DNA of 64,000 nucleotides from Myxococcota bacterium (GTDB taxonomy: Bacteria; Myxococcota_A; UBA9160; UBA4427), in assembly GCA_965250285.1 (NCBI GenBank), contig OZ252299.1, positions 2,240,001 through 2,304,000 of the forward strand. Direction: 5' to 3'. This document shows positions 4,059 to 5,000 of this stretch, one piece after another. The position numbers and the translations under genes are program-made. Below the pieces are notes generated by a model that saw nothing but the letters and a program-made list of their open reading frames with translations, made no database searches and had not been told where the DNA came from. Numbering within the stretch: position 1 is the first letter of the stretch; every line of letters starts with the position of its first letter.

Positions 4059-5000
4059 GTGATCGTCCAATCCTTCTACAACAAGCGACTCCGCCGCTAC
4101 GCCCACCTGGTCGTGTGCCCCGAGACCGGTGCGGCCGCAGTGATCGACCCGGTCAGCGAGGACGCCGACGCGTACGCAGAGGCGGCCCGGTCGAGCGAGG
4201 CCCGACTGGCCTTCGCGCTCCAGACCGCGGCACGCCCGGCTGACCCGGCCGCACTGCGCACGCTCGAGGATCGCTTCGGCACCGTGACGCGCGCCCCGGC
4301 GCGCCATCCGCGGCAGCCGGACAACACCGGACTCGTCGCCGTCGGCGATGCGTTCGAGCTCGGCGCCCTGCCGGTTCGCGTCGTCTCGAACACGCCGCCA
4401 GCGGGACCCGACGTCGCGTACCGCATCGACGACACGCTCTTCACCGGCTGGACGCTCGTGAAGGGTGATCTGTCTCGCGAAGCCGGTCCGATCGACGCCG
4501 ACGAGCTCATCGCACGCGCGCGCAACGACCTCGGCGCGCTCGTCTCGGCGCGCAAGCTCACGCGCAAGGAGACGGCGCTCGCCGAGAACTATCTCACGTT
4601 GCTCGAAGAGCTCGGTCGACCGCCGAGCGCACGTGAGCTCGCGAACGTCGAAGCGGGTCTCGATCGGGGGGCCGTGCACGTGCTGATCCACGGCATGCGT
4701 CGCAAGCAGGTCGCGCTCGGGCAGGTCCCGATCCTGCTCCACGGCCAGATGCACAAGTGGCTCAAGGGCCTGCAGGGCGAGCCCGAATACACGGCGCACG
4801 AGCGCCGATTCCTCGCCGAGTATCTGGGCTTCGTCGAGGAGCACGGACGCGTGCCGACCGGCCCCGAGATCAAGACGCGACTGCCCGAGGGCACGACGAT
4901 CCAGTGGGTGCGCAAACGCGTGCACACGATCCGCCGCAAGCAGGCCGCCTTCGGCCGCGCACCGATCCTCATGGGTCGCGAGCGACGCCAGCCCCGGTAG
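4059..5000 (+). CDS. hypothetical regulator: degenerate MBL-fold (PDO/glyoxalase II-like) domain plus two tandem LexA-like winged-HTH repeats
   Basis: GTG with GAGAGG RBS. N-terminal AAVIDPV and YRIDDTLFTG are MBL-like but lack THxHxDH. C-terminal 77-aa-spaced repeats LTRKE...GRPPSARELA...RRKQ and YTAHE...GRVPTGPEIK...RRKQ. Confidence 0.7.
   Translation: MIVQSFYNKRLRRYAHLVVCPETGAAAVIDPVSEDADAYAEAARSSEARLAFALQTAARPADPAALRTLEDRFGTVTRAPARHPRQPDNTGLVAVGDAFELGALPVRVVSNTPPAGPDVAYRIDDTLFTGWTLVKGDLSREAGPIDADELIARARNDLGALVSARKLTRKETALAENYLTLLEELGRPPSARELANVEAGLDRGAVHVLIHGMRRKQVALGQVPILLHGQMHKWLKGLQGEPEYTAHERRFLAEYLGFVEEHGRVPTGPEIKTRLPEGTTIQWVRKRVHTIRRKQAAFGRAPILMGRERRQPR

Follow-up and report, generated by a model that had tools for sequence, protein, structure and literature searches.

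The open reading frame at 4059–5000 of the window (the whole 64,000-nucleotide stretch of DNA analysed here) encodes a protein in which a truncated, ligand-free persulfide dioxygenase (PDO) domain is followed by two LexA-like helix–turn–helix (HTH) units, an architecture that is likely to be a new kind of transcription regulator belonging to a narrow uncultured clade. We consider DNA binding by this tandem HTH protein to be quite probable, and we give an even chance to the fuller reading that it is a DNA-binding regulator acting in a stress context, with its dead PDO part serving as an interaction module and not as a ligand sensor. The gene and the parts of its product are as follows.

4059..5000, + strand: gene for the pseudo-PDO/tandem-HTH protein, short subfamily (313 aa, GTG start)
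4059..4547, + strand: truncated, ligand-free type I PDO/ETHE1-like metallo-β-lactamase (MBL) domain (aa 1–163)
4116..4118, + strand: Cys20, the sole Cys of the protein, unconserved (among 74 aligned members, 33 have C and 37 have S)
4224..4244, + strand: degenerate metal motif TAARPAD in the place of THxHADH (T56–D62), from alignment to intact PDOs
4392..4451, + strand: second and third iron-ligand positions, both degenerate (TPPA replaces TPGH, residues 112–115; GW replaces GD, residues 130–131)
4557..4742, + strand: HTH repeat 1, three predicted helices, recognition helix DRGAVHVLIHGMRRKQ (aa 167–228)
4743..4787, + strand: inter-repeat linker GQxxKWL, the most conserved segment per column (0.78)
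4788..4973, + strand: HTH repeat 2, basic recognition helix QWVRKRVHTIRRKQ (6 K/R, 0 D/E; aa 244–305)

The codon pattern of the reading frame (GC1/2/3 of 0.75/0.49/0.87), together with whole-gene dN/dS values of 0.15, 0.26 and 0.35 for the three possible pairs of three short-form genes, indicates a real gene under selection. A first homologue search found 14 proteins among 7998 candidates, nine of them short forms (including the window's own protein and one fragment), and a profile of the C-terminal half then picked out 78 proteins of 288–405 aa among 7993 scored, giving a family of at least 78 members; eight shorter matches look like fragments, as judged on the five other than P0221–P0223. 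An N-terminal MBL-like region is present in 78/78 members, so the fusion named in the initial annotation is retained in homologues; the HMM used for that region was itself built from 27 family members, and the count thus speaks for a common architecture and is not an independent annotation.

Across the family 47 positions are at least 95% conserved, 41 of them within residues 164–313, where they concentrate on both third helices and on the GQxxKWL linker. Those in the MBL part are I2, A26, A27, P31 and T56, which look structural, with L158 as the sixth within residues 1–163. The conserved half is without a family match in Pfam, NCBIfam (0 families), PHROGs or the PDB: searched with the repeats, PHROGs gave four families with a best E-value of only 0.008, and the PDB profile search gave a single unrelated match at E 2.4. 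In the ESM Atlas, residues 160–313 had no usable match and the whole protein found only Lactamase_B clusters (0.85–0.86). A Pfam HNH_repeat match (22.3 bits for a cut-off of 26, over 18 residues) was rejected as the common ELG.PPS..E motif.

The N-terminal domain is recognizable as an MBL fold of PDO/ETHE1 type by both sequence and predicted structure. Its nearest matches include 3tp9 in phmmer (E 1.4 × 10−5), and 3r2u (E 8.4 × 10−10) and the Myxococcus xanthus ETHE1 4ysb (E 3 × 10−9, rmsd 3.2) in Foldseek; VIA structure comparison gave Z 13.6 with rmsd 2.6 over 138 aligned residues, and the α–β–β–α fold of type I PDOs is predicted up to about residue 163, where it is truncated. Identity to intact type I/ETHE1-like PDOs is 29–30% over 134 aa (E about 10−14). 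The initial annotation had compared the N-terminal half with the intact PDO at 51969 of the window; the PDO-type fold stands, but that particular enzyme is a poor comparator, being only 28% identical over 46 aa (E 0.006). The lost-ligand motifs are in the translation exactly as annotated and align without a shift to those of intact PDOs (TAARPAD to THAHADH, TPPA to TPGH, GW to GD); the three iron-ligand positions of the window protein are occupied by A57, A115 and W131. Neither the 2-His-1-carboxylate iron triad nor the THxHADH motif of the enzymes is present, HxHxDH occurs in 0/78 family members, and the former metal-ligand columns vary freely across the family. The call of a dead MBL domain is therefore right as to the ligands but not as to the extent, since the domain runs to about residue 163 and is also truncated: beyond a helix that stops close to that residue the chain no longer follows the MBL fold, the last ~70 PDO residues are absent, the PGHDY strand and the C-terminal PDO helices are missing, and the GRTDF loop is not kept. 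PMC6060420 and PMC11507549 name the PDO iron triad and the glutathione (GSH)-binding residues, the latter being R139, Y173, R190 and K212 in AcPDO (PMC6060420). In our alignment none of these four is retained: the GRTDF loop is unconserved, and the protein lacks the segments in which the other three reside. Since the residues of the glutathione-persulfide pocket are gone, the remnant is unlikely to be a sulfur sensor.

In the short subfamily, however, the old active site does not look purely vestigial. QTA..P.D, NTPPAGP and TGW are invariant or nearly so at that site in the eight full-length short forms, NTPPAGP being invariant in 8/8, and they could form a new ligand pocket. The MBL part alone has dN/dS values of 0.09–0.42 among short forms, which means purifying selection; together with the persistence of such domains as stand-alone proteins of about 200 aa (see below), this points to an MBL domain kept for a non-catalytic purpose.

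The C-terminal half is a true internal duplication, as had been proposed for the 77-aa units beginning at 4557 and 4788: the repeat starts are 77 codons apart, the units have the endings given in that annotation, and the repeats match each other at 35% identity over 62 aa in BLASTP (E 7 × 10−10) and at 98.2% in a profile–profile HHalign comparison. AlphaFold2, run with a 14-row alignment, predicts three helices per repeat with a mean pLDDT of 87.6 (about 88–94 over repeat 1) and a pTM of 0.54, a value that leaves the relative placement of the repeats uncertain. When the repeats were pooled and compared by HHalign with profiles built from genes of the same lineage, they matched its own LexA N-domains at 95.1% (E 3 × 10−8) over 51 columns covering helices 1–3, as against 33.5% over 27 columns for sigma70 region 3 (an RpoD-only alignment) and 0.5% for BLACT_WH. 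Taken singly, repeat 1 reached 56% and repeat 2 reached 70% with the LexA N-domain. Pfam LexA_DNA_bind matched 5/14 members (best E 4 × 10−4), sigma70 region 3 matched 1/14 (E 0.21) and region 2 none, and PF17778 (BLACT_WH) is absent from the Pfam scans of the family.

On the predicted models, the structure matches of the repeats are those of a generic HTH. The LexA entries 3jso, 3k2z and 1jhf superpose in Foldseek with rmsd 1.2–1.7 Å over 52 aa and prob 0.91–0.98, but with E-values of 0.5–1.1; no match reached E ⩽ 0.001, and the top rows are sigma factors, with a best E of 0.02 but an rmsd of about 18 Å. In VIA, 3k2z scored Z 6.6, and LexA is not set apart from sigma region 3 (Z 7.1) or from OmpR-type and MntR domains, all of which score Z 6–7. 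The initial description of two LexA-like winged-helix domains thus holds for the LexA-like HTH and fails for the wing: no strand of three or more residues is predicted in either repeat in two AlphaFold2 models, one of them full-length, and the HHalign alignment with LexA N-domains ends where the LexA wing begins. The stated lack of a LexA peptidase domain was confirmed, as Pfam found no S24 peptidase/dimerization domain in 14/14 members and the window protein ends eight residues after repeat 2.

Both third helices are basic, and their invariant residues are not the same. Repeat 1 has D202, R203, H207 and H211 (its helix also holds R214), and repeat 2 has W283, R285, K286, R287 and T290 (its helix also holds R292). 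Since the two recognition helices differ, an asymmetric reader seems likelier than a symmetric mimic of the LexA dimer, which makes the single-chain pseudo-dimer of the initial annotation doubtful. As a separate observation, the invariant H207 and H211 (i, i + 4; window 4677–4691) and the near-invariant H247 and E248 (4797–4802) could make up an inter-repeat metal site.

The fusion has a narrow distribution. Among 225 genomes of the class the repeat profile matched 17, which all belong to the same family as the host genome (G000) and fall within six genera; it matched every genome searched from those genera (16/16 besides G000). When 185,579 species genomes were scanned, 17 loci came up, seven of them labelled Myxococcota or Myxococcales and the remaining ones Deltaproteobacteria, unclassified or 'Spirochaetaceae'. 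Two subfamilies can be told apart. The long form (about 360–400 aa) is present as one copy in each of 17 genomes, and the short form (313 aa) is found only in G000, a second genome (G001) and metagenomes; the short forms are 61–84% identical to each other and make up one side of a branch with SH-aLRT 100. G000 has both forms, its long paralogue being:

G000 C1:1096776–1097816: long-form paralogue (38% identity, 360 aa) that has a sigma54 promoter and a perfect box

Relatives of the dead domain also exist alone. A search of 1.84 billion representatives gave 2120 matches at E ⩽ 0.001, of which the best 150 are listed, and this search and that of the genomes both found stand-alone proteins of ~200 aa without HTH, in which the iron ligands are likewise lost; the four tested (P0029, P0031, P0035 and P0038) have no Pfam match. 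In a quick tree of 103 rows and 139 columns, which included 45 of the intact PDO-like matches, one side of a branch with SH-aLRT 98 holds no intact enzyme and unites 27 domains from fusions with 15 rows that lack the ligands (two of these are probably fusion fragments), a grouping to be read with the small number of columns and possible long-branch attraction of dead domains in mind. The tree suggests that the MBL domain may have died before the fusion and persists alone. Seven other ligand-free rows fall among the intact PDOs; two proteins placed there, P0040 (a ligand-free PDO-like domain with a PALP domain, a cysteine-synthase-like fold family) and P0130 (the same kind of domain with a weak YgaP-like membrane domain), are likely independent deaths. 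One unannotated stand-alone pseudo-PDO family, in which ETG replaces THxHADH, was seen at loci L201–L209 in nine genomes (G003, G008, G017, G024, G030, G035, G062, G065 and G067); a query with this family did not find it in G000.

The long forms come with a regulatory system of their own. A sigma54 −24/−12 motif lies 90–130 nt before the start in 16/16 long-form upstream regions, and palindromic boxes with a consensus of about TGGYTSAWWTSARCCA lie at −79 to −83 and −109 to −113 from the GG; in the twin-box test 26 of 32 sequence windows pass with at most four mismatches. Directly downstream, 15/17 long-form loci encode a HisKA/HATPase kinase and a receiver–sigma54–Fis (NtrC-type) activator. 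Only G000 and G001 depart from this, their activator orthologue being encoded elsewhere; that of G000 lies at C1:226739, and a CHASE-domain protein at about C1:1083000 is the closest kinase there. At E ⩽ 10−125 the activator is found in 25/225 genomes, namely 16 of the 17 fusion carriers (in the 17th it is interrupted by a contig end) and nine genomes without the fusion. Ten loci taken from these nine genomes gave sigma54-like sites in seven, and the same boxes accompany 11 of 12 such sites (shuffle p ⩽ 0.007); in a control on G000 with a near-identical matrix, the box score exceeded 10 at only 5 of 128 sigma54-like sites. Because the boxes adjoin the activator also in genomes without the fusion, they belong to the NtrC-type activator, and we rejected them as an operator of the fusion protein itself.

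Behind the box promoters of the fusion-less genomes are genes for YfdX (two cases), HdeA, LemA with an M48 peptidase, MoxR and TauE. YfdX and HdeA are acid-stress proteins. This gene content suggests that the activator regulon may serve envelope or acid stress, the envelope link being drawn from neighbours in other genera only. The stand-alone dead PDOs share this control, with a sigma54 promoter and enhancer boxes in 8/9 genomes (p ⩽ 0.017) and in 5/5 in another test. Several further loci were seen in passing: activator boxes mark the regulon in fusion-less genomes at L190–L198 (including TauE/DUF1634), one genome (G031) has five sigma54-like sites within 13 kb, and a 95-aa unannotated open reading frame in G030 (L156, 1675–1962) stands behind a box and sigma54 promoter and is a possible regulon member.

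The short form in the window has different surroundings, its upstream region being without the sigma54 motif or box. The features around it are:

3845..3878, + strand: promoter-like block with an imperfect palindrome (3849–3864), kept in 3/3 short-form upstream regions
3885..3961, + strand: 12-bp inverted repeat (3885–3896/3950–3961), possible 5′ leader hairpin
5111..5157, + strand: conserved block with TATACT (5137–5142) upstream of devB, in 3/3 loci
5236..9309, + strand: DevB-family fusion protein, two FtsX/MacB permeases and ABC ATPase (DevBCA-like exporter)

The exact palindrome pattern of the first block is unique in G000, and from three sequences we infer that the block is a candidate sigma70-type promoter with an auto-operator. 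The consensus sigma70 scan gave 0 sites and the terminator scan 0; when the genome was scanned for the short-form motif, the full site did not recur and no regulon emerged. The 10-mer half-site has 24 copies genome-wide; one of them, noticed post hoc, lies in the 5′ coding part of devB (5290–5299), with TTCGGA kept in 3/3 loci, possibly by chance. The 12-bp stem is kept in 3/3 short-form leaders with a compensatory change, of weak significance, with fold z-scores of only −0.6 to −1.6, and the four Rfam matches are all far below the gathering score. The block at 5111–5157 is likely the exporter operon's own promoter. The exporter is assigned by TIGR02971 (above cut-off), by TIGR01185 (below cut-off) and by Pfam. 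A devB-like gene follows the short form in 3/3 loci (the window, L038 and L055), so that the DevBCA-type exporter is a conserved neighbour and a candidate target. The divergent SDR gene (2814–3620) was rejected as a conserved target, as it is found in the window and in G001 and is absent in L055. Further along 5236–14227, beyond the exporter come an FGGY kinase, a membrane protein (10858–11901) that Pfam does not match and a CDP-alcohol phosphatidyltransferase, with an outer-membrane efflux protein on the minus strand; this region is possibly a glycolipid or phospholipid export cluster. Elsewhere in the window, the intact PDO gene (51969–52829) and genes for rhodanese, TauE and a probable YeeE/YedE (by eye) have in front of them a sigma54 motif (51910), twin boxes (51806 and 51837) and a divergent PAS–sigma54–Fis activator on the minus strand (50427–51797). 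The stretch 50427–54774 is a FisR-like sulfur-detoxification unit, and its box-promoter pattern recurs in G001 (L159).

Several other explanations have to be weighed against a DNA-binding regulator with an interaction module. A one-component sensor-regulator, in which the dead PDO binds a new, non-persulfide small ligand in a remodelled pocket and thereby governs how the HTH pair binds DNA (if only in the exporter-linked short subfamily), would agree with the (near-)invariant loops that replace the metal site in 8/8 full-length short forms, with MBL dN/dS values below 0.5 and with the exporter as conserved neighbour; we regard it as unlikely, however, since the same loop positions vary freely in long forms, half of the PDO pocket is deleted, and loop invariance among proteins of 61–84% identity may reflect packing against the HTH region. 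The initial annotation had favoured a persulfide or redox sensor, which would work through the PDO remnant and Cys20. The PDO ancestry of the domain speaks for this, as does the intact PDO operon of the window, which also has a sigma54 promoter and twin boxes and can be compared with the FisR-controlled pdo operons described in PMC7315123. That proposal now looks very unlikely: Cys20 is present in only 33/74 members, the three iron ligands are lost and their positions vary freely, the residues corresponding to those binding GSH in AcPDO are unconserved or in the deleted tail, and no sulfur-detoxification gene was seen directly adjoining the fusion genes in the annotated loci, whose neighbours were judged by eye and scanned in part.

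The repeats might also bind protein instead of DNA, either as units resembling sigma region 3 on RNA polymerase or as a feedback inhibitor of the co-encoded kinase or activator. Sigma factors do head the Foldseek list and the kinase and activator are tightly linked to the long form, but the profile comparison is far better with LexA than with sigma region 3, nine of the 25 genomes with the activator have no fusion, and the short form is without kinase and activator neighbours; we judge protein binding of this kind to be quite unlikely. Least of all do we expect an RNA-binding autoregulator that recognizes its own structured 5′ leader, an idea for which the conserved leader stem and the very basic second recognition helix could be cited, against the poor fold z-scores from three sequences. 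LexA-type HTHs are, moreover, DNA binders.

Taken together, a DNA-binding regulator with a dead interaction module remains our preferred explanation. In this mechanism the two LexA-like HTH units of a single chain would read one asymmetric operator, and the truncated PDO remnant would likely serve as a module for folding and protein contact and not for sensing sulfur. The long paralogues would be switched on by the sigma54/NtrC-type two-component system, so that control of the long branch would be mainly through expression level, and the flanking targets of the activator (YfdX, HdeA, M48 peptidase with LemA, MoxR) would point to envelope or acid stress. The short paralogue of the window would be an old duplicate with a different promoter, and our guess is that it acts as a repressor of its own promoter, of the DevBCA-type exporter next to it, or of both. 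Since the same invariant recognition residues are found in both paralogues, similar operators are to be expected. A more tentative extension, to which we assign a low probability, is that dead PDOs make up a signalling family: a sigma54 two-component system would co-induce a stand-alone pseudo-PDO and the fusion, and these would pair via their dead MBL domains, the stand-alone protein titrating or switching a single-chain, cleavage-independent, LexA-derived regulator of envelope-stress genes.

Compared with known systems, the protein would resemble regulators of the one-component or second-tier kind in its way of working, its heads being of LexA type, and its sequence does not make it a member of the LexA, PDO or LACTB2 type. 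It shares the MBL fold with type I PDO/ETHE1 (MxPDO 4YSB, hETHE1 4CHL) and with the type III-like MBL–rhodanese proteins (3R2U, 3TP9), but is fused to HTHs and not to rhodanese, and is without the triad, THxHADH and the last ~70 residues. With the LexA N-domain (PF01726; 3JSO, 3K2Z) it shares the three-helix bundle and the pattern LT..E/Q..L....G.PPS..E(L/I); unlike LexA, it has two C-terminal copies per chain with differing recognition helices, predicted to be wingless, and lacks the S24 peptidase. G000 has a separate gene for a normal LexA (C1:174233). The LACTB2-type proteins (4AD9, PF17778) similarly have an MBL followed by a helical domain of DNA-binding type (VIA Z 11.4, rmsd 5.9, 195 aligned), but there with one winged helix (BLACT_WH) and an intact HxHxDH, whereas here there are two HTHs, no HxHxDH and a BLACT_WH profile match of 0.5%; a separate BLACT_WH gene is present in 31/31 genomes searched. 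PqsE–RhlR offers a bacterial analogy, with PqsE being a separate, metal-binding protein, and PqsE chains are among the VIA structure matches. CPSF100 is an MBL fold without the metal-motif residues that acts as a partner subunit, according to PMC4819959; unlike the present protein, it belongs to eukaryotic RNA processing and has no fused HTH. The sigma54-controlled pdo operons with FisR (PMC7315123) resemble the present loci in having a sigma54 promoter and an enhancer-binding activator adjoining a PDO-family gene, but here a membrane kinase is paired with an activator of the receiver-domain NtrC type, and it is dead PDOs whose genes are controlled.

A dead type I PDO joined to two LexA-type HTHs was not described in a full-text literature search, which left subscription journals mostly uncovered. 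The reach of the finding is limited to six genera and opens no long-standing question. The clade consists of uncultured marine and sediment-type Myxococcota (the habitat being inferred), and we know of no cultured host. Within it, the proteins offer a traceable series from an enzyme through a stand-alone pseudoenzyme to a regulator, and they bring to light a sigma54 regulon whose enhancer motif is clear, as well as stand-alone pseudo-PDOs that form an unannotated family. The fusion also presents a LexA-type DNA-binding domain that would be free of RecA-dependent cleavage and doubled in one chain.
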